From: Mobula birostris
Taxonomy: Eukaryota
Assembly: GCF_030028105.1 (NCBI RefSeq)
Contig: NC_092385.1
Location: 56,965,433-57,029,432 of the forward strand
Direction: 5' to 3'
DNA: 64,000 nt
In this document: in pieces, positions 1-59,379 of the stretch
How positions within the stretch are numbered: position 1 is the stretch's first letter
Layout: every line of letters begins with the position of its first letter
Notes under the pieces: generated by a model
Databases searched by the model: none
Seen by the model: only the letters and a program-made list of their open reading frames with translations
What the model was told of the DNA's origin: nothing
Program-made: the position numbers and the translations under genes

Positions 1-3000
1 GGGAGAGTGACAGGGTGATGGAGAGGAGAGTGACAGGGTGATGGAAAGTGACAAGGTGATGTAGAGTGAAAGGGTGATGGAGGTAGAGTGACAGGGTGAT
101 GGAGGGAGGGTGATGAAGAGGAGAGTGACAGTGTGATGAGGGGAGAGTGACAGGGTGATGGAGGGGAGAGTGACAGGGTGATGGAGTGGAGAGTGACAGG
201 GTGATGGAGAGTGACAGGGTTATGGAGGGAGAGTGACAGGTTGATGGAGAGTGACACGGTGATGGAGGGAAAGTGACACAGTGATGGAGAGTGACAGGGT
301 GATGGAGGGAGAGTGACAGGGTGATGGAGAGTGACAGGGTCATTGAGAGGCGAGTGACAGAGTGATGGAGAGTGACAGCATGATGGAGAGTGACAGGGTG
401 ATGGAGGGAGAGTGACAGGGTGATGCAGAGTGACAGGGTAATGGAGGGGAGAGTGAAAGGGTGATGAAGAGGAGAGTGACAGGGTGATGGAGGGGAGAGT
501 GACAGGGTGATGGAGGGAGAGTGACAGGGTGATGGAGAGTTACAGGGCGATGGAGAGGAGAGTGACAAGGTGATGGAGAGAGAGTGAGAGGATGATGGAG
601 GAGAGAGTGACAGGGTGATCGAGGGAGAGTGACAGGGTGATGGAGAGGAGAGGGACAGGGTAATGGAGAGTGACAGGATGATGGAGAGGAGAGTGACAGG
701 GTGATGGAGGGAAGAGTGACAGGGTGATGGAGAGTGACAGGATAATGATGGGGAGAGTGACAGGGTGATGGAGGGAAGAGTGACAGGGTGATGGACAGTG
801 ACAGGGTGATACAGAGTGACAGGATAATGATGGGGAGAATGACAAGGTGATGGAGAGTTACTGGGTGATGGAGCGGAGAGTTACAGTGTGATGGAGGGAG
901 AGTGACAGGTTGATGGAGGGGAGAGTGACAGGGTGATGGACAGTGACAGTGTGATGGAGAGGAGAGTGACAGCGTGATGGAGAGTGACAGGGTGATGGAG
1001 GGAGAGTGACTGGGTGATGGAGAGTTACATGGGGATGGAGAGCAGAGTGACAGGGTGATGGAGAGTGACAGGGTGATGGAGGGAGAGTGACAGGGTGATG
1101 GAGAGTGACCGGGTGAATGAGAGGAGAGTGACACGGTGATGGAGGGAGAGTGACAGGGTGAAGGACGGAGAGTGACAGGGTGATGGGAGAATGACAGGGT
1201 GATGGAGGGGAGAGTGACAGGGTGATGGAGGGAGAGTGACAGGGTGATGGAGGGGAGAGTGACAGGGTGATGGACGGGGGAGTGACAGGGTGATGGAGAG
1301 GAGAGTGACAGCGTGATGGAGAGTGACAGGGTGATGGAGGGAGAGTGACTGGGTGATGGAGAGTGACAGGGTAATGGAGGCGAGAGTGACAGGGTGATGA
1401 AGAGCAGCGTGACAGGGGCCTGGAGGGGAGAGTGACATGGTGATGGAGAGTTACAGGGTGATGGAGAGGAGAGTGACAGGCTGTTGGAGAGTGACAGGGT
1501 GATGGAGGGAGAGTGACAGGGTGATGGAGAGTGACTGGGTAATGGAGGGAGAGTGACAGGGTGATGGAGAGTGACAGGGTGATGGAGCGGAGAGTGACAA
1601 GCTGATGGAGAGTACAGGGTGATGAAGGGGAGAGTGACAGGGTGATGGAGATTGACAGGGCGATGGAGGGAGAGTGACAGGGTGATGGAGAGTGACAGGG
1701 AAATGGAGGGGAGAGTGACAGGGTTATGAAGAGGAGAGTGACAGGGTGATGGAGGGGAGAGTGTCAGGGTGATGGAGGGGAGAGTGACAGGGTGATGGAG
1801 GGAGAGTGACAGGGTGATGGAGAGTGACCGGGAGAATGAGAGGAGAGTGACAGAGTGATGGAGGGGAGAGTGACAGGGTGAAGGACGGAGAGTGACAGGG
1901 TGATGGAGAATGACAGGGTGATGGAGGGGAGAGTGACAGGGTGATGGAGGGAGAGTGACGGAGTGATGGAGGGGAGAGTGACAGGGTGAAGGACGGAGAG
2001 TGACAGGGTGATGGAGAATGACAGGGTGATGGAGGGGAGAGTGACAGGGTGATGGAGGGAGAGTGCAGTGTGATGGAGAGTGACAGGGTGATGCAGAATA
2101 GAGAGACAGGGTGATGGAGGGGAGAGTGACGGTGTGAAGGAGAGTGACAGGGTGATGGAGAGTGACAGGGTGAAGGAGACAGACTGACAGGGTGATGGAG
2201 GGGAGAGTGACAGGGTGATGGAGAGTGACAGGGTGATGGAGGGGAGAGTGACAGGGTGATGGAGGGCAGAGTGACAGGGTGATGGAGAGTAACGGGGTGA
2301 TGGAGTGTGACAGCGTAATGGAGGGGAGAGTGAAAGGGTGATGAAGAGGAGAGTGACAGGGTGATGAAGGGGAGAGTGACAGGGTGATGGAGAGTGACAG
2401 GGTGATGGAGGGAGAGTGACAGGGTGATGGAGAGTGACAGGGAAATGGAGGGGAGAGTGACAGGGTTATGAAGAGGAGAGTGACAGGGTGATGGAGGGGA
2501 GAGTGTCAGGGTGATGGAGGGGAGAGTAACAGGGTGATGGAGGGAGAGTGACAGGGTGATGGAGAGTGACCGGGAGAATGAGAGGAGAGTGACAGAGTGA
2601 TGGAGGGGAGAGTGACAGGGTGAAGGACGGAGAGTGACAGGGTGATGGAGAATGACAGGGTGATGGAGGGGAGAGTGACAGGGTGATGGAGGGAGAGTGA
2701 CGGAGTGATGGAGGGGAGAGTGACAGGGTGAAGGACGGAGAGTGACAGGGTGATGGAGAATGACAGGGTGATGGAGGGGAGAGTGACAGGGTGATGGAGG
2801 GAGAGTGCAGTGTGATGGAGAGTGACAGGGTGATGCAGAGTAGAGAGACAGGGTGATGGAGGGGAGAGTGACGGTGTGAAGGAGAGTGACAGGGTGATGG
2901 AGAGTGACAGGGTGAAGGAGACAGACTGACAGGGTGATGGAGGGGAGAGTGACAGGGTGATGGAGAGTGACAGGGTGATGGAGGGGAGAGTGACAGGGTG

Positions 3001-6000
3001 ATGGAGGGAGAGTGACAGGGTGATGGAGAGTGACCGGGAGAATGAGAGGAGAGTGACAGAGTGATGGAGGGGAGAGTGACAGGGTGAAGGACGGAGAGTG
3101 ACAGGGTGATGGAGAATGACAGGGTGATGGAGGGGAGAGTGACAGGGTGATTGAGGGAGAGTGACGGAGTGATGGAGGGGAGAGTGACAGGGTGAAGGAC
3201 GGAGAGTGACAGGGTGATGGAGAATGACAGGGTGATGGATGGGAGAGTGACAGGGTGATGGAGGGAGAGTGCAGTGTGATGGAGAGTGACAGGGTGATGC
3301 AGAGTAGAGAGACAGGGTGATGGAGGGGAGAGTGACGGTGTGAAGGAGAGTGACAGGGTGATGGAGAGTGACAGGGTGAAGGAGACAGACTGACAGGGTG
3401 ATGGAGGGGAGAGTGACAGGGTGATGGAGAGTGACAGGGTGATGGAGGGAGAGTGACAGGGTGATGGAGGGCAGAGTGACAGGGTCATGGAGAGTAACGG
3501 GGTGATGGAGTGTGACAGCGTAATGGTGGGGAGAGTGACAGGGTGAATGAGACACAGTGACAGGTTGATGGACGAAGAGTGAAAGGCTGATGGAGGGAGA
3601 GTGACAGGGTGATGGAGAGGAGAGTGTCAGGGTGATGGAAAGTGACAAGGTGATGTAGAGTGAAAGGGTGATGGAGAGAGAGTGACAGGGTGATGGAGGG
3701 AGGGTGATGAAGAGGAGAGTGACAGTGTGATGAGGGGAGAGTGACAGGGTGATGGAGGGGAGAGTGACAGGGTGATGGAGTGGAGAGTGACAGGGTGATG
3801 GAGAGTGACAGGGTTATGGAGGGAGAGTGACAGGTTGATGGAGAGTGACAGGGTGATGGAGGGAAAGTGACACAGTGATGGAGAGTGACAGGGTGATGGA
3901 GGGAGAGTGACAGGGTGATGGAGGGAGAGTGACAGGGTGATGGAGGGAGAGTGACCGGGTAATGGAGGGGAGAGTGACAGGGTGATGGAGGGAAGAGTGA
4001 CAGGGTGATCGAGAGTTGCAGGGTGATGGAGAGATAGTGACAGGGTGATGGAGAGTGACAGGGTGTTGGAGGGAGAGTGACAGGGTGATAAAGAGTGACA
4101 GGGTGATGGAGGTAGAGTGACAGGGTGATGGAGAGTGACCGGGTCAAGGAGAGGAGAGTGACAGGCCGATGGAGAGGAGAGTGACAGGGTGATGTAGAGT
4201 GAAAGGGTGATGGAGGGAGAGTGACAGGGTGATGCAGAGTGACAGGGTCATTGAGAGGCGAGTGACACAGTGATGGAGAGTGACAGCATGATGGAGAGTG
4301 ACAGGGTGATGGAGGGAGAGTGACAGGGTGATGGAGAGTGACAGCGTAATTGGGGGGGAGAGTGAAAGGGTGATGAAGAGGAGAGTGACAGGGTGATGGA
4401 GGGGAGAGTGACAGGGTGATGAGGGAGAGTGACAGGTGCATGGAGAGTTATAGTGCGATGGAGAGGAGAGTGACAAGGTGATGGAGAGAGAGTGAGAGTG
4501 TGATGGAGGAGAGAGTGACAGGGTGATGGAGAGTGACAGGGTGATGGAGGGAGAGTGACAGGGTGATGGAGAGTGACAGGGTGATCGAGGGAGAGTGACA
4601 GGGTGATGGAGAGTTACAGGGTGAAGGAGAGGAGAGGGACAGGGTAATGGAGAGTTACAGGGTGATGGAGAGGAGAGTGACAGGCTGTTGGAGAGTGACA
4701 GGGTATTGGAGGAAGAATGACAGGGTGATGGAGACCTACAGTGTGATGCAGAGGAGAGTGACAGGATGATGGAGAGTGACAGGGTGATGGAGGGAGAGTG
4801 CAGTGTGATGGAGAGTGACAGGGTGATGCAGAGGAGAGAGACAGGGATGATGGAGGGAGAGTGACAGGGTGATGGAGGGGAGAGTGACAGGGTGATGGAC
4901 GGGGGAGTGACCGGGTGATGGAGGTAGAGTGACAGGGTGATGGAGAGTGACCGGGTCAAGGAGAGGAGAGTGACAGGCCGATGGAGAGGAGAGCGACAGG
5001 GTGATGTAGAGTGAAAGGGTGATGGAGGGAGAGTGACAGGGTGATGGAGAGTGACAGGGTCATTGAGAGGCGAGTGACAGAGTGATGGAGAGTGACAGCA
5101 TGATGGAGAGTGACAGGGTGATGGAGGGAGAGTGACAGGGTGATGCAGAGTGAGAGGGTAATGGATGGGAGAGTGAAAGGGTGATGAAGAGGAGAGTGAC
5201 AGGGTGATGGAGGGGAGAGTGACAGGGTGATGGAGGGAGAGTGACAGGGTGATGGAGAGTTACAGGGCGATGGAGAGGAGAGTGACAAGGTGATGGAGAG
5301 AGAGTGAGAGGGTGATGGAGGAGAGAGTGACAGGGTGATGGAGGGATTGTGACAGTGTGATGGAGAGTGACAGGGTGATCGAGGGAGAGTGACAGGGTGA
5401 TGGAGAGGAGAGGGACAGAGTAATGGAGAGTGACAGGATGATGGAGAGGAGAGTGACAGGGTGATGGAGGGAAGAGTGACAGGGAGATGGAGAGTGACAG
5501 GATAATGATGGGGAGAGTGACAGGGTGATGGAGGGAAGAGTGACAGGGTGATGGACAGTGACAGGGTGATGCAGAGTGACAGGATAATGATGGGGAGAAT
5601 GACAAGGTGATGGAGAGTTACTGGGTGATGGAGCGGAGAGTTACAGTGTGATGGAGGGAGACTGACAGGTTGATGGAGGGGAGAGTGACAGGGTGATGGA
5701 GAGTGACAGTGTGATGGAGAGGAGAGTGACAGCGTGATGGAGAGTGACAGGGTGATGGAGGGAGAGTGACTGGGTGATGGAGAGTGACAGGGTAATGGAG
5801 GGGAGAGTGACAGGGTGATGAAGAGCAGCGTGACAGGGGCCTGGAGGGGAGAGTGACAGGGTGATGGAGAGTTACAGGGTGATGGAGAGGAGAGTGACAG
5901 GCTGTTGGAGAGTGACAGGGTGATGGAGGGAGAGTGACAGTGTGATGGAGAGTGACTGGGTAATGGAGGGAGAGTGACAGGGTGATGGAGAGTGACAGGG

Positions 6001-9000
6001 TGATGGAGCGGAGAGTGACAGAGTGATGGAGGGGAGAGTGACAGGGTGAAGGACGGAGAGTGACAGGGTGATGGAGAATGACAGGGTGATGGAGGGGAGA
6101 GTGACAGGGTGATGGAGGGAGAGTGACGGAGTGATGGAGGGGAGAGTGACAGGGTGAAGGACGGAGAGTGACAGGGTGATGGAGAATGACAGGGTGATGG
6201 AGGGGAGAGTGACAGGGTGATGGAGGGAGAGTGCAGTGTGATGGAGAGTGACAGGGTGATGCAGAGTAGGGAGACAGGGTGATGGAGGGGAGAGTGACGG
6301 TGTGAAGGAGAGTGACAGGGTGATGGAGAGTGACAGGGTGAAGGAGACAGACTGACAGGGTGATGGAGGGGAGAGTGACAGGGTGATGGAGAGTGACAGG
6401 GTGATGGAAAGTGACAAGGTGATGTAGAGTGAAAGGGTGATGGAGGGAGAGTGACAGGGTGATGGAGGGAGGGTGATGAAGAGGAGAGTGACAGTGTGAT
6501 GAGGGGAGAGTGACAGGGTGATGGAGGGGAGAGTGACAGGGTGATGGAGGGAGAGTGACAGGTTGATGGAGAGTGACAGGGTGATGGATGGAAAGTGACA
6601 CAGTGATGGAGAGTGAAAGGGTGATGGAGGGAGAGTGACAGGGTGATGGAGGGAGAGTGACAGGGTGATTGAGTGAGAGTGACCGGGTAATGGAGGGGAG
6701 AGTGACAGGGTGATGGAGGGAAGAGTGACAGGGTGATCGAGAGTTGCAGGGTGATGGAGAGATAGTGACAGGGTGATGGAGAGTGACAGGGTGATGGAGG
6801 GAGAGTGACAGGGTGATAAAGAGTGACAGGGTGATGGAGGTAGAGTGACAGGGTGATGGAGAGTGACCGGTCAAGGAGAGGAGAGTGACAGGCCGATGGA
6901 GAGGAGAGTGACAGGGTGATGTAGAGTGAAAGGGTGATGGAGGGAGAGTGACAGGGTGATGGAGAGTGACAGGGTCATTGAGAGGCGAGTGACACAGTGA
7001 TGGAGAGTGACAGCATGATGGAGAGTGACAGGGTGATGGAGGGAGAGTGACAGGGTGATGGAGAGTGACAGCGTAATGGAGGGGAGAGTGAAAGGGTGAT
7101 GAAGAGGAGAGTGACAGGGTGATGAAGGGGAGAGTGACAGGGTGATGGAGAGTGACAGGGTGATGGTGGGAGAGTGACAGGGTGATGGAGAGTGACAGGG
7201 AAATGGAGGGGAGAGTGTCAGGGTTATGAAGAGGAGAGTGACAGGGTGATGGAGGGGAGAGTGGCAGGGTGATGGAGGGGAGAGTGGCAGGGTGATGGAG
7301 GGAGAGTGACAGGGTGATGGAGAGTGACCGGGAGAATGAGAGGAGAGTGACAGAGTGATGGAGGGGAGAGTGACAGGGTGAAGGACGGAGAGTGACAGGG
7401 TGATGGAGAATGACAGGGTGATGGAGGGGAGAGTGACAGGGTGATGGAGGGAGAGTGCAGTGTGATGGAGAGTGACAGGGTGATGCAGAGTAGAGAGACA
7501 GGGTGATGGAGGGGAGAGTGACGGTGTGAAGGAGAGTGACAGGGTGATGGAGAGTGACAGGGTGAAGGAGACAGACTGACAGGGTGATGGAGGGGAGAGT
7601 GACAGGGTGATGGAGAGTGACAGGGTGATGGAGGGGAGAGTGACAGGGTGATGGAGGGCAGAGTGACAGGGTCATGGAGAGTAACGGGGTGATGGAGTGT
7701 GACAGCGTAATGGTGGGGAGAGTGACAGGGTGAATGAGACACAGTGACAGGTTGATGGACGAAGAGTGAAAGGCTGATGGAGGGGAGAGTGACAGGGTGA
7801 TGGAGAGGAGAGTGTCAGGGTGATGGAAAGTGACAAGGTGATGTAGAGTGAAAGGGTGATGGAGGGGAGAGTGACAGGGTGATGGAGAGGAGAGTGTCAG
7901 GGTGATGGAAAGTGACAAGGTGATGTAGAGTGAAAGGGTGATGGAGAGAGAGTGACAGGGTGATGGAGGGAGGGTGATGAAGAGGAGAGTGACAGTGTGA
8001 TGAGGGGAGAGTGACAGGGTGATGGAGGGGAGAGTGACAGGGTGATGGAGGGAGAGTGACAGGTTGATGGAGAGTGACAGGGTGATGGAGGGAAAGTGAC
8101 ACAGTGATGGAGAGTGACAGGGTGATGGAGGGAGAGTGACAGGGTGATGGAGGGAGAGTGACAGGGTGATTGAGTGAGAGTGACCGGGTAATGGAGGGGA
8201 GAGTGACAGGGTGATGGAGGGAAGAGTGACAGGGTGATCGAGAGTTGCAGGGTGATGGAGAGATAGTGACAGGGTGATGGAGAGTGACAGGGTGATGGAG
8301 GGAGAGTGACAGGGTGATAAAGAGTGACAGGGTGATGGAGGTAGAGTGACAGGGTGATGGAGAGTGACAGGGTCATTGAGAGGCGAGTGACACAGTGATG
8401 GAGAGTGACAGCATGATGGAGAGTGACAGCGTAATGGAGGGGAGAGTGAAAGGGTGATGAAGAGGAGAGTGACAGGGTGATGAAGGGGAGAGTGACAGGG
8501 TGATGGAGAGTGACAGGGTGATGGTGGGAGAGTGACAGGGTGATGGAGAGTGACAGGGAAATGGAGGGGAGAGTGACAGGGTTATGAAGAGGAGAGTGAC
8601 AGGGTGATGGTGGGAGAGTGACAGGGTGATGGAGAGTGACAGGGAAATGGAGGGGAGAGTGACAGGGTTATGAAGAGGAGAGTGACAGGGTGATGGAGGG
8701 GAGAGTGGCAGGGTGATGGAGGGGAGAGTGACAGGGTGATGGAGTGGAGAGTGACAGGGTGATGGAGAGTGACAGGGTTATGGAGGGAGAGTGACAGGTT
8801 GATGGAGAGTGACAGGGTGATGGAGGGAAAGTGACACAGTGATGGAGAGTGACAGGGTGATGGAGGGAGTGTGACAGGGTGATGGAGGGAGAGTGACAGG
8901 GTGATTGAGGGAGAGTGACCGGGTAATGGAGGGGAGAGTGACAGGGTGATGGAGGGAAGAGTGACAGGGTGATCGAGAGTTGCAGGGTGATGGAGAGATA

Positions 9001-12000
9001 GTGACAGGGTGATGGAGAGTGACAGGGTGTTGGAGGGAGAGTGACAGGGTGATAAAGAGTGACAGGGTGATGGAGGTAGAGTGACAGTGTGATGGAGAGT
9101 GACCGGGTCAAGGAGAGGAGAGTGACAGGCCGATGGAGAGGAGAGTGACAGGGTGATGTAGAGTGAAAGGGTGATGGAGGGAGAGTGACAGGGTGATGGA
9201 GAGTGACAGGGTCATTGAGAGGCGAGTGACACAGTGATGGAGAGTGACAGCATGATGGAGAGTGACAGGGTGATGGAGGGAGAGTGACAGGGTGATGGAG
9301 AGTGACAGCGTAATGGGGGGGAGAGTGAAAGGGTGATGAAGAGGAGAGTGACAGGGTGATGGAGGGGAGAGTGACAGGGTGATGAGGGAGAGTGACAGGG
9401 TGATGGAGAGTTACAGGGCGATGGAGAGGAGAGTGACAAGGTGATGGAGAGAGAGTGAGAGGGTGATGCAGGAGTGAGTGACAGGGTGATGGAGAGTGAC
9501 AGGGTGATGGAGGGAGAGTGACAGGGTGATGGAGAGTGGCAGGGTGATGGAGGGAGAGTGACAGGGTGATGGAGAGTTACAGGGTGATGGAGAGGAGAGG
9601 GACAGGGTAATGGAGAGTTACAGGGTGATGGAGAGGAGAGTGACAGGCTGTTGGAGAGTGATAGGGTATTGGAGGAAGAATGACAGGGTGATGGAGACTT
9701 ACAGTGTGATGCAGAGGAGAGTGACAGGATGATGGAGAGTGACAGGGTGATGGAGGGAGAGTGCAGTGTGATGGAGAGTGACAGGGTGATGCAGAGGAGA
9801 GAGACAGGGTGATGGAGGGAGAGTGACAGGGTGATGGAGAGTAACGGGGTGATGGAGTGTGACAGGGTGAAGGAGACAGACTGACAGGGTGATGGAGGGA
9901 GAGTGACAGGGTGATGGAGGGAGAGTGACTGGATGATGGAGAATGACAGGGTGATGGAGGGAGAGTGACAGGGTAATGGAGGGGAAAGTGACAGGGTGAT
10001 GAAGACGAGAGTGACAGGGTGATGGAGGAGAGAGTGACAGGGTCATGGAGAGTTACAGGGTCATGGAGAGTGACAGGGTGATGGAGGGAGAGTGACAGGG
10101 TGATGGAGAGTTACAGGATAATGGAGAGGAGAGTGACAGGGTGATGGAGGGAGAGTGACAAGGTGATGGAGAGTGACAGGGTGATGGTGCGTAGAGTGAC
10201 CGGGTGATGGAGGGATAGTGACAGGGTGATGGAGGGAGAGTGACAGTGTGATGGAGGGGTGAGTGACAGGGTGATGGAGGGAGAGTGACAGGGTGATGGA
10301 GAGGAGAGTGACAGGGTGATGGAGAGTGTCAGGGTGATGGAGGGGAAAGTGACAGGGTGATGGAGAGTGACAGGGTGATGGAGAGTTACAGGGTGAAGGA
10401 GACAGAGTGATAGGGCGATGGACGTGAGAGTGACAGGGTGATGTTGAGTGACAGTGTGATGGAGGGGAGAGTGACAGGCTGATGGAGAGTGACAGAGTGA
10501 TGGAGGGGAGAGTGACACGGTGATGGAGGGGAGAGTGAGAGGGTGATGGAGAGGAAAGTGACAGGGTGATGGAGAGTGACAGGGTGAAGCAGAGTGACAG
10601 GTTGATGGAGATTTACAGGGTGATGGAGGGATAGTGACAGGGTGATGGAGGGGAGAGTGACAGGGTGATGGAGAGTGACAGGGTGATAGATGGATAGTGA
10701 CAGGGTGATGGAGGGAGAGTGACAGGGGGATGGAGAGGAGAGTGACAGGGTGATGGAGGGAGGGTGACAGGGTGATGAAGAATGACAGGGTGATGGAGAG
10801 AAGAGAGACAGGGTGATGGAGGGGAGTGTGACGGTGCGATGGAGAGTGACAGGGTGATGAAGAGTGACAGTGTGAAGGACACAGAGTGATAGTGTGATGG
10901 AGGGGAGAGTGACAGGGTGATGGAGAGTGACAGGGTGATGGAGGGGAGAGTGACAGGGTGATGGAGGGAGAGTGACAGCGTGATGGAGGGAGAGTGACAG
11001 GGTGATGGAGAGTGTCAGGGTGATGGAGGGAGAGTGACAGGGTCATGGAGAGTGACAGGGTGATGGAGAGTGTCAGGGTGATGGAGGGAGAGTGACAGGG
11101 TGATGGAGAGTGTCAGGGTGATGGAGGGAGAGTGACAGGGTCATGGAGAGTGACAGGGTGACGGAGCGAGAGTGACAGGGTAATGGAGGGTAAAAGTGAC
11201 AGGGTGATGAAGAGGAGAGTGACAGGTTGATGGACGGGAGAGTGACAGGGTCATGGAGAGTTACAGGGTCATGGAGAGTGACAGGGTGATGGAGGGAGAG
11301 TGACAGGGTAATGGAGAGTTACAGGGTGATGGAGAGGAGAGTGACAGGGTGATGGAGGGAGAGTGACAGGGTGATGGAAAGTGACAGGGTGATGGAGCGT
11401 AGAGTAACCGGGTGATGGAAGGATAGTGACAGGGTGATGGAGGAGAGAGTGACAGGGTGATGGAGGGGTGAGTGACAGGGTGATGGAGAATGACAGCGTG
11501 ATAGATGGAGAGTGACAGGGTGATGGAGGGCGATTCACAGGGTGATGTAGAGGAGAGTGACAGGGTGATGGAGGGAGAGTGACAGGGTGATGGAGAGGAG
11601 AGTGACAGGGTGATGTAGAGTGAAAGGGTGATGAAGGGAGAGTGACAGTGTGATGGAGAGTGACAGGGTGATGGAGAGTTACAGGGTGAAGGAGACAGAG
11701 TGATAGGGTGATGGACGTGAGAGTGACAGGGTGATGGTGAGTGACAGGGTGATTGAGGGGAGAGTGACAGGGTGATGGAGAGTGACAGGGTCATGGAGGG
11801 GAGAGTGACAGGGTGATGGAGAGGAAAGTGACAGGGTGATGGAGAGTGACAGAGTGATGGAGAGTGACAGGGTGAAGCAGAGTGACAGGTTGATGGTGAT
11901 TTACAGGGTGATGGAGGGATAGTGACAGGGTGATAGAGGGGAGAGTGGCAGAGTGATGGAGAGTGACTGGGTGATAGATGGATAGTGACAGGGTGATGGA

Positions 12001-13117
12001 GCGAGAGTGACAGGGTGATGGTGAGGAGAGTGACAGGGTGATGGAGAGAGAGTGACAGTGATGGAGAGAAGAGAGACAGGGTGATGGAGGGGAGAGTGAC
12101 GCGGTGATGGAGAGTGACAGTGTGATGGAGGGGAGAGTGACAGGGTGATGGAGAGGAAAGTGACAGGGTGATGGATAGTGACAGGGTGATGCAGAGTGAC
12201 AGGGTGATGGAGGGGAGAGTGACAGGTTGATGGAGATTTACAGGGTGATGGAGAAGTGAGTGACAGGGTGATGGAGGGAGAGTGAGAGGGTGATGGAGGG
12301 AAGAGTGACAGAGTGATGGAGAGTGACAGGGTGATGGAGAGGAGAGTGACAAGGTGATGGAGAGTGACAGGGTGATGGAGGGAGAGTCACAGGGTGATGG
12401 AGAGCTACAGGGTGATGGAGAGGAGAGTGACAGGGGGATTGGGAGTGACGGGGTGATGGAGGGAGAGTGACAGTGTGATGGAGGGAGAGTGACAGGGTGA
12501 TGGAGAGTGGCAGGGTGATAGAGAGTGACAGGGTGATGGAGGGAGTGTGACACAGTGATGGAAATGAGAGTGACAGGGTGATGGAGAGGAGAGTGTCAGG
12601 GTGATGGATAGGAGAGTGACGGGGTGTTAGAGAGAAGAGTGACAGGGTGATGGAGATGATAGTGACAGCGTGATGGAGAGTGACAGGGTGATGGAGAGTG
12701 ACTGGGTGAAGGAGGATTAGTGACAGGCTGATGGAGAGTGTCAGGGTGATGGAGATGAGAGTGACAAGGTGCTGGAGGAGAGAGTGACAGGGTGATGGAG
12801 AGTGACAGGGTGATGGAGGGGAGAGTGACAGCGTGATGGAGGGAGATTGACAGGTTGATGTAGATGAGAGTGACAGGGTGATGGAGAGTGACAGTGTGAT
12901 GGAGAGAAGAGAGCCGGTGATGGAGGGGAGAGTGACGGGGTGATGGAGAGTGACAGGGTGATGGACGTGAGAGTGACAGGGTGATGGTGAGTGACAGGGT
13001 GATGGAGGGGAGAGTGACAGGTTGATGGAGATTTACAGGGTGATGGAGAAGAGAGTGACAGGGTGATGGAGGGAGACTGACAGGGTGATGGAGAGTTACA
13101 GGGTGATGGAGAGGAGA
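1..13117. repeat. Purine-rich satellite array, core AGAGTGACAGGGTGAT plus linker GG / GGAGGG / GGAGGGG (18, 22, 23-nt units), open at the left window edge
   Basis: Continuous tandem repetition from base 1 to ~13117, roughly 600 units; the 18-mer has 14/18 purines and one C. Confidence 0.98.
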
Positions 13118-16165: not shown

Positions 16166-16769
16166 TATTTTCTCAGATACCTTTTTTAAACAAACCGTCT
16201 AAAAGCTTCTTGAAAAAAACATTTCCCAGCTACCGACAATTAATGCTGTGAAGTTGACGAGCTGAATAAACAACCCTTCAAGCGTATTAACACATCAGCC
16301 ATTTGATATGCTAAGTAATATTATCCATCTGTTTTGCAAACTTCCTTGAATAATTTGGCCTGTTTTGAAACAAGCCCAATTAAATAACCCATTGTCTTAC
16401 ACTGTAGCTCTTGAGAAGTCAGTCCAGGTGCTGTGACCCAACATCCTACTTTCTATAGACAGTGTGTCAGTCTGCAAAGCTGTCCTTTCAACTTCAAACT
16501 GATTATTGCTGGCCATTTACATAAAAAACTGAAGACTGGTTCCCATTTATGACTATCAGCTAAACAAAGAATATTAGTTGGAAGTTTGTTATTCAAAAAC
16601 AACCCTTTAATCTCCAGAAGTGCCAGCTGTTGTGTTTAGAAAACTGAGCTTGGCAAGAAAGACAAAAACGCAAACAACAGGAATTCTGCAGATGCTGGAA
16701 ATTCAAGCAACACACATCAAAGTTGCTGGTGAACGCAGCAGGCCAGGCAGCATCTCTAGGAAGAGGTAC

Positions 16770-16805
16770 AGTCGACGTTTCAGGCCGAGACTCTTCGTCA
16801 GGACT
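16770..16805 (-). ncRNA. Minimal type I hammerhead ribozyme motif in the left pLTR
   Basis: Minus strand AGTC-CTGACGA-AGAGTCTCGGCCT-GAAAC-GTC-GACT: intact CUGANGA, GAAA and GUC boxes; stem I AGUC/GACU; stem II weakened. Confidence 0.75.
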
Positions 16806-17123
16806 AACTGAAGGAAGAGTGAGTAACGGATTTGAAAGTGGGAGGGGGAGATCCAAAATGATAGGAGAAGACAGGAGGGGGAAGGGATGGAGCCAAGAGC
16901 TGGACAGGTGATAGGCAAAAGGGATATGAGAGGATCATGGGACAGGAGGTCTGGGGAGAAAGACAAGGGGGGGGGACCCAGAAGGTGGGCAAGGGGTATA
17001 GTCAGAGGGACAAAGGGGGAAAAAGAAGAGTGAGAGAAAGAATGTGTGTATAAAAATAAATAGTGGATGGCGTACGAGGGGGAGGTGGGGTATTAGAGGA
17101 AGTGAGAGAGGTCGATGTTCATG

Positions 17124-18896
17124 TTGTAGTCTGGCATACTGACCACTACCTTGCCGAGGCACAGCGACAACTTGCGGATACCTCCTCTTATTTACCCCTC
17201 GATTGTGACGCCACTAAGGAGCACCAGGCCATTGTCTCCCACACCATCACCGACTTTATCCGCTCAGGGGATCTCCCATCCACTGCTACCAACCTTATAG
17301 TTCCCACACCCCGCACTTCCCGTTTCTACCTCCTATCCAAGATCCACAAACCTGCCTGTCCTGGCAGACCTATTGTCTCAGCTTGCTCCTGCCCCACCGA
17401 ACTCGTTTCTGCATACCTCGACACGGTTTTATCCCCCCCTGTTCAATCTCTTCCTACCTATGTTCGTGACACTTCTCACGCTCTTAAACTTTTCGATGAT
17501 TTTAAGTTCCCTAGCCCCCACCGCTTTATTTTCACCATGGATGTCCAGTCCCTATATACTTCCATCCCCCATCAGGAAAGTCTCAAAGCTCTCCGCTTCT
17601 TTTTGGATTCCAGACCCAATCAGTTCCCTTCTACCACCGCTCTGCTCCGTCTAGCGGAATTAGTACTTACTCCTAATAATTTTTCCTTTGGCTCCTCCCA
17701 CTTCCTCCAAACTAAAGATGTAGCTATGGGCACCCGTATGGGTCCTAGCTATGCCTGCCTTTTTGTTGGCTTTGTGGAACAATCTATGTTCTGTGCCTAT
17801 TCTGGTATCTGTCCCCCCACTTTTCCTTCGCTACATCAACGACTGCATTGGCACTGCTTCCTGCACGCATGCTGAGCTCATTGACTTTATTAACTTTGCC
17901 TCCAACTTTCACCCTGCCCTCAAGTTTACCTGGTTCATTTCCGACACTTCCCTCTCCTTTCTAGATCTTTCTGTCTCTGTCTCTGGAGACAGCTTATCCA
18001 CTGTTGTCTACTATAAGCCTACTGACTCTCACAGCTATCTGGACTATTCCTCTTCGCACCCTGTCTCTTGCAAAAATGCCATCCCCTTCTCGCAATTCCT
18101 CTGTCTCCGCCGCATCTGCTCTCAGGATGAGGCTTTTCATTCTAGGACGAGGGAGATGTCCTCCTTTTTTAAAGAAAGGGGCTTCCCTTCCTCCACTATC
18201 AACTCTGCTCTTAAACGCATCTCCCCCATTTCACGTACATCTGCTCTGACTCCATCCTCCCGCCACCCCACTAGGAATAGGGTTCCCCTTGCCCTCACCT
18301 ACCACCCCACCAGCCTCCGGGTCCGACATATTATTCTCCGTAACTTCTGCCACCTCCAACAGGATCCCACTAAGCACATCTTTCCCTCCCCCCCCCCCCC
18401 AGCTTTCTGCAGGGATCGCTCCCTATGCGACTTCCTTGTCCATTCATCCCCCCGGTTCCTCCCCACTGATCTCCCTCCTGGCACTTATCCGTGTAAGCGG
18501 AACAAGTGCTACACATGCCCTTACACTTCCTCCCTTACCACCATTCAGGGCCCCAGACAGTCCTTCCAGGTGAGGCGACACTTCACCTGTGAGTCGGCTG
18601 GGGTGATATACTGCGTCCAGTGCTCCCGATGTGGCCTTCTATATATTGGTGAGACCTGACGCAGACTGGGAGACCGTTTCGCTGAACACCTACGCTCTGT
18701 CCGCCAGAGAAAGCAGGATCTCCCAGTGGCCACACATTTTAATTCCACATCCCATTCCCATTCTGACATGTCTATCCACGGCCTCCTCTACTGTAAAGAT
18801 GAAGCCACACTCAGGTTGGAGGAACAACACCTTATATTCCGTCTGGGTAGCCTCCAATCTGATGGCATGAACATTGACTTCACTAACTTCCGCTAA
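17124..18896 (+). pseudogene. Penelope reverse transcriptase plus GIY-YIG endonuclease ORF, disrupted
   Basis: FYLLSKIHK..PGRPIVS, TMDVQSLYTSIP, AMGTRMGPSYA, LRYINDC, VYYKPTD, VIYCVQCSRCGLLYIGET; frameshift near 17820 and stop at 18657. Confidence 0.93.
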
Positions 18897-19178
18897 TGCC
18901 CCACCTCCCCCTTGTACCCCATCCATTATTTATTTTTATACACACATTCTTTTTCTCACTCTCCTTTTTCTCCCTCTGTCCCTCTGAATATACCCCTTGC
19001 CCATCCTTTGGTTCCCCCCCCCCGTCTTTCTCCCCAGACCTCCTGTCCCATGATCCTCTCCTGCCAATCACCTGTCCAGCTCTTGGCTCCATCCCTCCCC
19101 CTCCTGTCTTCTCCTATCATTTTGGATCTCCCCCTCCCCCCACCACTTTCAAATCTCTTACTCACTCTTCCTTCAGTT

Positions 19179-19214
19179 AGTCCTAACGAAGGGTCTCGGC
19201 CCGAAACGTCAACT
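19179..19214 (+). ncRNA. Minimal type I hammerhead motif in the right pLTR, core mutated
   Basis: AGTC-CTAACGA-AGGGTCTCGGCCC-GAAAC-GTC-AACT; CUGA changed to CUAA. Confidence 0.7.
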
Positions 19215-19329
19215 GTACCTCTTCCTAGAAATGCTGCCTGGCCTGCTGCGTTCACCAGCAACTTTGATGTGTGTTGCTTGGCAAGAAAGATGATGGATGC
19301 CCCCTCACCCAGAAAGTGAATGTCCATCA

Positions 19330-56600: not shown

Positions 56601-56930
56601 AGACTCTTCATCAGGAGAGGAATGGCGGGATTAAGAAACCAGAATAAGAAGGTGGGACAGAAAGGAGTACAAGCTGGCCGGTGATAGATAAAGGCAGGTG
56701 AGGGAGGAGGGATGAAGTCAGAAGATAGGAGGTCATAAACACAAGAAAGTCTGCAGATGCTGGAAATCCAAAGCAACACACACAAAGAGCTGTATGAACC
56801 CAGCAGGTCAGGCAGCATCCGTAGAAATGAGTCGATGATTCGGGCGGAAACCCTTCCACAGGACTGAGAAGGAAGGGGGAAGAGAAGGTAATAGTTGGAG
56901 AAGGTAGAGCTGAAGAAGGAGGAATCTGTT
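56598..56930 (-). mobile_element. Two tandem, decayed Penelope pLTR fragments
   Basis: CTGCAGATGCTGGAAATC..CAGCAGGTCAGGCAGCATC; degenerate hammerheads CTGTGGA..GAATCATC and CTGATGAAGAGTCTC on the minus strand. Confidence 0.75.
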
Positions 56931-58794: not shown

Positions 58795-59052
58795 CTTTAT
58801 GGGCAGGGATGAGAGGGGAAAGGAATTTGTGTGCCAAAACACTTTAACCAGAGAATGCCTAAAGTAGGGAAGGAGCTCCCTCAACATTGTAACTACACTG
58901 AATGTTTCAGAACTCCTGCAGTGGCCACTCAGAAGTCAGCCACACAAACTGAAGGTGTCTGGGATAGCTCAGCAATGCCAGTCAGGAAGGTAAGCTGAGA
59001 GGATACAACCTTGTGCCTAACTGTCCTGACAAAGTGTCCTCCATCTGAAATG

Positions 59053-59240
59053 CAACACACATCAACGTTGCTGGTGAACGCAGCAGGCCAGGCAGGGTAC
59101 AGTCCTGACAAAGGGTCTCGGCCCAAAACATCGACTGTACCTCTTCCTAGAGATGCTGCCTGGCCTGCTGCGTTCACCAGCAACGTTGATGTGTGTTGCT
59201 TGAATTTCCAGCATCTGCAGATTTCCTCGTGTTTGCGTCT
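59053..59240 (+). mobile_element. Penelope-derived non-coding hairpin element with central hammerhead motif and 10-bp TSD
   Basis: Perfect 44-bp inverted repeat 59052-59095 / 59156-59199; ATCTGAAATG at 59043-59052 and 59241-59250; sequence matches the pLTR at 16670-16805. Confidence 0.9.
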
Positions 59241-59379
59241 ATCTGAAATGTTTTTTTTCACTAAGATGCTGCCTGACCTGCTGAGTACTTCCTGTTTCTG
59301 GCCCTTACTGAGAACAGCAGTCCATGCTATGACTGAAAACATAACATGGGTTCTCATCTCTGCTGGTGGTGGGCTTAGA

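Follow-up and report, generated by a model that had tools for sequence, protein, structure and literature searches.

Insertions of endonuclease-bearing Penelope-like elements are known to contain an inverted, 5'-truncated copy placed head to head, a tail of 30-40 bp at one end and a duplication, and the parent ORF encodes a reverse transcriptase (RT) with a C-terminal GIY-YIG domain (PMC3846280, PMC8557442, PMC2377424; the sources cited in this text were available in part, and statements about them apply to the available text). Both PMC8557442 and PMC11167929 describe the way in which insertions with this inversion and tail arise as unresolved. Penelope end repeats carry minimal type I hammerheads with the core, a short stem II that contains one additional base, a palindromic remnant of stem III and a short stem I, for which opposite-strand pairs 100-700 bp apart and low activity in vitro were reported (PMC4209133). 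The PAc protein of the Anolis Penelope cuts and extends both strands in vitro and starts reverse transcription at two internal positions that delimit the tail; a dimer was predicted, ribozyme cleavage was dispensable in vitro, and no RNA-seq ends were found at the cut site (PMC11167929). In L1 twin priming, the other end of the target serves as primer for a second cDNA, which leaves a microhomology junction and a clean duplication, and an extra G marks capped full-length ends (PMC11702581). Non-LTR retrozymes are non-coding, Penelope-derived and provided with a type I hammerhead, and they form head-to-tail tandems whose units run from cut to cut (bioRxiv 10.64898/2026.07.22.740005).

The window, by which we mean the whole stretch of 64,000 nt of Mobula birostris DNA that was analysed, contains a feature that is real and of an already known kind, namely end repeats in inverted arrangement that have a tail on one side and a target duplication (as in PMC3846280, PMC8557442 and PMC2377424). 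A 188-bp insert (59053-59240) is bracketed by ATCTGAAATG target duplications (Table 1). Its inverted repeat (59052-59095/59156-59199) is perfect over 44 bp, the hairpin folds as DNA with z = -14.6 (0 of 200 shuffles were equally good), and an inner stem of 9 bp (59096-59104/59133-59141) closes the hammerhead core at 59105-59132. All of these elements, as reported in a preliminary description of the locus, were re-found. With +1 defined as the first base after the predicted cut (GUC), the 5' strand of stem I occupies -31 to -28, and the junction of the hairpin reads -31, then five extra bases, then +24. Compared with the published Penelope-like insertions, this hairpin is the shortest form and has no ORF. 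It shares the non-coding, Penelope-derived, hammerhead-bearing character of the retrozymes but is arranged head to head with a single core and starts at -31; head-to-tail units with complete hammerheads were not found in it.

Table 1. Coordinates of the hairpin insert, its surroundings and a larger insertion of the same family in the window.
Feature	Position	Strand	Remarks
Left target-site duplication	59043..59052	+	10 bp; 13 bp (59040-59052) if one mismatch is allowed
Right target-site duplication	59241..59250	+	second ATCTGAAATG copy
Short inverted arm	59052..59095	-	element +67 to +24; tail-less; base 59052 common to arm and duplication
Five junction bases	59096..59100	-	complement of +5..+9
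Stem I, 5' strand	59101..59104	+	-31..-28; long-arm start; at the 5'-end hot spot of the family
Minimal hammerhead core and stem II	59105..59132	+	G>A at 59110, 59125 and 59130; predicted cut after 59132; motif as in PMC4209133 (available text)
Long forward arm	59101..59238	+	-31 to about +103/+106; includes tail of ~36 nt (59200-59235)
Older decayed hammerhead-bearing end repeat, left part	59020..59052	+	host of the hairpin insertion
Older decayed end repeat, right part	59251..59295	+	same old repeat as 59020..59052
Larger head-to-head insertion of the hairpin's family	16671..19280	.	long arm (16671-17123) inverted; forward arm running from RT region to +70; 14-bp duplication

Stems I and II of the window copy fold, and three core bases are mutated, a difference from the hammerheads described for Penelope in the available text of PMC4209133. 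The three lesions had been read as CpG G>A changes, and they are present as such in comparison with the copy at 19.2 kb. The sequences at 16.8 and 19.2 kb, which had been taken for separate copies, do belong to the family but together make up a single 2.6-kb insertion, as its two arms, with one 14-bp duplication. The mutated bases correspond to G8, G12 and G16.2 in standard hammerhead numbering; therefore, judged by its sequence, this ribozyme copy is very likely inactive. An Rfam scan of the window returned no hammerhead match at E<=1, which is uninformative for minimal motifs, and RNA folds of the stems alone in the window copy were no better than shuffles. The hairpin is an ordinary dead stub of a Penelope-type element, one among many in the genome. 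Aligned to the end repeat of the family, its empty site scores 83, as against 71 for the best of 1000 shuffles, and the insertion point lies in the stem II/core region of that older repeat. Elsewhere in the window, 56737-56866 holds a minus-strand older copy (78% identity) of a related hammerhead-bearing end repeat, and within positions 1-13000 the first ~12 kb are extremely skewed in both GC (about 0.78) and AT, which probably reflects a simple or satellite repeat.

The genome assembly contains 62,752 exact matches to a 26-mer of the end repeat, and in longer copies the last part of an ORF that encodes a GIY-YIG domain lies upstream of the same end repeat. At one locus (L223; loci are given as L numbers) an open frame of 1043 aa lies between two copies of the window-type end repeat; it matches GIY-YIG (E=9e-5, above the cutoff) and RVT_1 (E=6.5e-4, below the cutoff) and has a Cys-rich linker ahead of the endonuclease, of the kind associated with Neptune/Nematis in the available text of PMC8557442. 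Partial tandems form pseudo-LTRs at L223, L224 and L230. On the evidence of this frame, the parent is an endonuclease-bearing Penelope-like element with RT and C-terminal GIY-YIG, and members of the family show the inverted 5'-truncated copy with a one-sided tail of 30-40 bp. The family reference has the conserved core, stems I and II and the palindromic 15.2-16.2 pair of minimal type I hammerheads, which bears out the preliminary assignment to a Penelope end repeat.

Hairpins of this family were then sampled regardless of their junctions, from the first 100 of the 62,752 motif matches listed (the first 5.1 Mb of contig C1) together with the window, two stretches beside it and off-centre copies of other loci. 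Arms with less than 86% identity, ending before +45 or lying near locus edges were excluded. The sample yielded 161 arms, forming 44 hairpins and 73 unpaired arms, several of the latter being hairpins whose partner is too short or too distant. The 3' ends in the family are bimodal, near +67 and +103. In all 44 hairpins one arm ends near +103 (at least +90) and the other near +67, while the unpaired arms split into 39 long and 34 short (P-value = 6e-14 for the contrast). Among loci selected by their junctions, which partly overlap this sample, 112 of 114 combine a long and a short arm, as do the ORF-bearing inversions at L223, L227, L232, L235 and L240 and the 2.6-kb insertion in the window. 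The tail is called "optional" or "often on one end" in the available literature; here, counts are given for the pairing of one long with one short end and for the stop at -31. Of the 44 hairpins, 43 lie between target duplications of 10-16 bp.

We consider it probable that each hairpin arises in a single event: the two target strands, once nicked, would prime cDNA synthesis on uncut RNA, at two fixed sites, and the resulting cDNA ends would then be joined. The Anolis PAc protein in vitro likewise has two start sites and extends both strands, although the available text of PMC11167929 draws no link to inverted insertions. L1 differs in that the overlap between its arms is slight and the annealing site of the second primer varies (PMC11702581, available text), whereas here the starts are fixed and the overlap is usually wide. 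The long arm stops at +40 or beyond in 6 of 44 hairpins and the short arm in none (P-value = 0.026), as expected if the long cDNA comes up against the second primer, sitting on the RNA that it is copying. Non-reference bases are common to both arms at a rate of 1.63%, about four times the 0.39±0.12% of shuffled pairs; a succession of single active sources, or later conversion, could also account for such sharing. The short+short combination in 2 of the 114 junction-selected hairpins counts against twin priming. In the preliminary description the variant found in both arms of the window insert was regarded as private. It is indeed common to both arms, yet G occurs in 5 of 334 arms over all fetched loci and is thus rare rather than private: two of these are the arms of the window insert, and the other three (L004, L009, L021) carry it on one arm only.

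The junctions themselves are of two kinds. Seventeen are direct joins, 14 of them with microhomology (expected 42%), and the remaining 27 of 44 have inserted bases, several copied from nearby, a count that is inflated by mutations near arm ends. For the window hairpin a 14-nt deletion had been proposed, which is one of two readings: the bases at 59096-59100 may be a remnant of the short arm after such a deletion, or, equally well, a templated fill-in after annealing at stem I. Parallels to the latter occur at L144, with a similar piece, and at L149, with a one-mismatch version, in both cases between arms that reach -31/-34. At L136/L137 (C1, 4.035 Mb), head-to-head arms about 500 bp apart, apparently within one duplication, flank non-element sequence that is possibly captured host RNA.

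In a second explanation, a single cDNA that has been copied past an uncut ribozyme would bend back at the mirror of stem I and serve as its own primer, so that the short arm copies the first cDNA. It is close to the self-priming on an antisense template proposed in the available text of PMC3846280. The geometry of the window hairpin, with a long arm to -31, a short arm downstream and identical arms, would fit, and a brief episode of this sort may explain the five junction bases there and the pieces at L144 and L149. Among the sampled hairpins, the arm that reaches further 5' is the long one in 22 of 44 and the short one in 19 of 44. The latter arrangement is impossible from a single self-folding cDNA, which also leaves the near-constant end of the second arm near +67 without explanation, and we regard this route as unlikely.

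Two pairs of hairpins have identical junctions with different target duplications: L092:4650-5514 and L097:4220-5071, 156 kb apart and with long and short arms swapped, and L093:4948-5853 and L193:3062-3964, about 390 kb apart. Independent formation does not predict them, and they count against it. They would suit a self-propagating, non-autonomous hairpin family, or an origin by repair or conversion after insertion, but junctions differ widely among hairpins instead of being fixed as in MITE-like families, every hairpin is enclosed, with both of its arms, by a separate duplication, and the L092/L097 junction occurs just twice genome-wide. We therefore hold either of these origins to be very improbable. 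The two genome-wide matches also rule out a dispersed master behind the L092/L097 junction, and the variants shared by the two loci gave no order as to which came first. Local conversion between palindromes is our guess for both pairs. At L087:6313-6630 and L080, the same inversion junction lies inside the ORF in both copies.

The positions where arms start bear on the role of the ribozyme. In the 44 hairpins sampled without regard to junctions, 29 of 88 arms start in -38..-25, at the 5' edge of the ribozyme (0.056 per base at risk), compared with 14 in -24..-2 (0.010), 3 in -1..+4 (0.0074) and 12 in +5..+29 (0.0063). The peak at -38..-25 is 7.6-fold (P-value = 2e-5), and -1..+4 does not differ from its flanks (P-value = 1.0). 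Unpaired arms show the same peak (13 vs 1). The forward arm of the window hairpin holds an intact cut site, and therefore its RNA template was uncut.

According to the preliminary description, the cut made by the ribozyme sets the inversion point: cDNA would run off the cut 5' end at +1 and re-prime through stem I. Several observations would agree with this account of the window insert. Its junction lies on stem I, and the -31/+1 junction recurs, in both polarities, in 13 of the first 100 matches listed of the 744 to the +1 pattern. These genome-wide patterns demanded two mismatches immediately upstream of an anchor and gave 744 (+1), 512 (-3), 460 (+4), 460 (+7), 716 (-35) and 9,029 (-31) matches, the last being mixed with older families (10 of 30 loci belong to the hairpin's family, hence roughly 3,000). 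Junction classes were assigned by eye in the first 100 matches listed per pattern, with anchor recovery corrected and point mutants removed; a script applied to 30 loci each of the +1, +4 and -3 patterns agreed broadly. The normalised breaks in these by-eye classes number about 855 at +1, 640 at -3, 345 at +4 and 468 at +7, and because of this excess at +1 a contribution from some cut templates is possible. By eye, hairpin arms at +1 outnumber those at -3 about 1.6-fold and those at +4/+7 by a factor of 2-4, a mild excess, much of which falls at junctions with 3-4 nt of microhomology.

The remaining evidence speaks against the cut as the cause. A cut template requires a second cDNA from uncut RNA anyway. 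Only 3 of 88 arms end at -1..+4, and none of the 44 sampled hairpins has a clean -31/+1 junction. Since stem I matches itself in inverted orientation over 4 nt, any junction placed on it gives arms at +1 and -31 whichever end is causal, and a control junction, -25/-3, with the same 4-nt microhomology and both arms reading through the cut, makes up about 22% of the 512 matches at -3; genome-wide, the two junctions number about 145 each (by-eye classes, recovery-corrected). Single copies have no peak at +1, where about 122 start, as against 197 at -3, 133 at +4 and 115 at +7. A separate search for junctions (431 matches) gave the stem-I junction about 10-12 times in the first 100 matches listed, with several classes similar in size; BLAST with the hairpin as query enriches this junction by construction and was left out of the frequency estimate. 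If about half of the 62,752 motif matches are hairpin arms, the stem-I class would be of the order of 1% of hairpins. The expectation that mapping over many copies would reveal a peak at GUC/stem I is upheld in that the spread is not uniform, and fails as to the position of the peak; unlike in retrozymes, where the ends are set by the cut, 5' ends here peak at -38..-25 rather than +1. The complementarity of stem I is used in a recurring class of junctions, as had been proposed, but the data do not support a setting of the inversion by the cut end. For the window insert we consider an origin from a cut 5' end improbable. The fold-back point is likely set by the start of the RNA and the joining of two separately started cDNAs rather than by self-cutting.

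What sets the start at -31 can be approached through tandem joins that restart at -31/-35. Among 19 independent cases in which such a join has a single non-templated base, this base is G in 14 (P-value = 4e-4; counted by eye in the first 100 of 154 matches listed), an excess that is weak in the 9,029-match -31 set. The -31 site also fits the vertebrate initiator consensus. An extra G at L1 ends reflects the cap (PMC11702581, available text), and the G at these joins suggests that capped RNA starts at -31/-35, position 59101 being the likely RNA start in the window. The bases before -34/-33 also resemble a branch point, a pyrimidine tract and AG (window 19150-19178 and family copies), and a block by splicing factors could yield the same pile-up; the intron of the Drosophila Penelope ends at helix I (PMC4209133, available text). 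No recurring upstream sequence that could be a spliced first exon before -33 was found in the first 100 of 716 matches listed.

The same tandems give some indication of cleavage. In the first 100 listed, the first piece ends at 0 in ~21, at +3 in ~13 and at +6/+7 in ~26, and about 21 of these 100 end at 0 without microhomology. The latter would favour a cut 5' end as template, and the frequent ends at +3 and +6/+7 stand against it, so that cleavage in vivo is suggested and no more. Together with the excess of arms at +1, these pieces leave room for a minority of cut templates. Short sense pieces at L094:4849-5073 and L206:4863-5121 end at the predicted cut and then restart at -31/-30; they are possibly captured 5' cleavage products. 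Small arrays of cut-ending pieces also exist, for example on C4 near 178.77 Mb.

Under priming by both target strands at two fixed sites, the window hairpin may be reconstructed as follows. The long cDNA would extend along uncut RNA as far as -31, the 5' end of that RNA and likely a capped start that coincides with the first base of stem I. The final four bases of this cDNA, being complementary to a copy of +1..+4, would anneal there and gain five templated bases, and the extended cDNA would be joined to the short cDNA, itself stopped at +24. Elsewhere in the family, cDNA ends would be joined by microhomology or templated fill-in. CpG decay would later have destroyed the hammerhead core. Stem I would owe its use to its match with the end of a full-length cDNA, the ribozyme being one of several short complementary patches and its cutting dispensable. 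In the literature covered, mostly open-access papers, we found no twin-priming account of Penelope and no mapping of junctions against the hammerhead, and priority is not established.

A setting of the inversion by the cut would, if true, be the first genomic function for Penelope hammerheads; the data leave it a minor pathway at most. More tentatively, although we would not call it improbable, Penelope may encode a two-headed integrase-polymerase that uses the +103 and +67 sites, one for each target strand, on capped RNA starting at the first base of the ribozyme, while cutting would remove a 32-nt capped leader that is occasionally captured as a cut-ending piece. A two-headed protein, if true, would explain the long-unexplained inverted repeats and one-sided tail, and the cut-ending leader pieces would be a fossil of cleavage in vivo. 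The many sisters of this hairpin make the questions of Penelope insertion and of the role of its hammerhead testable, the leads from the family being one arm per start site, an RNA start at the first base of the ribozyme and mostly uncut templates.
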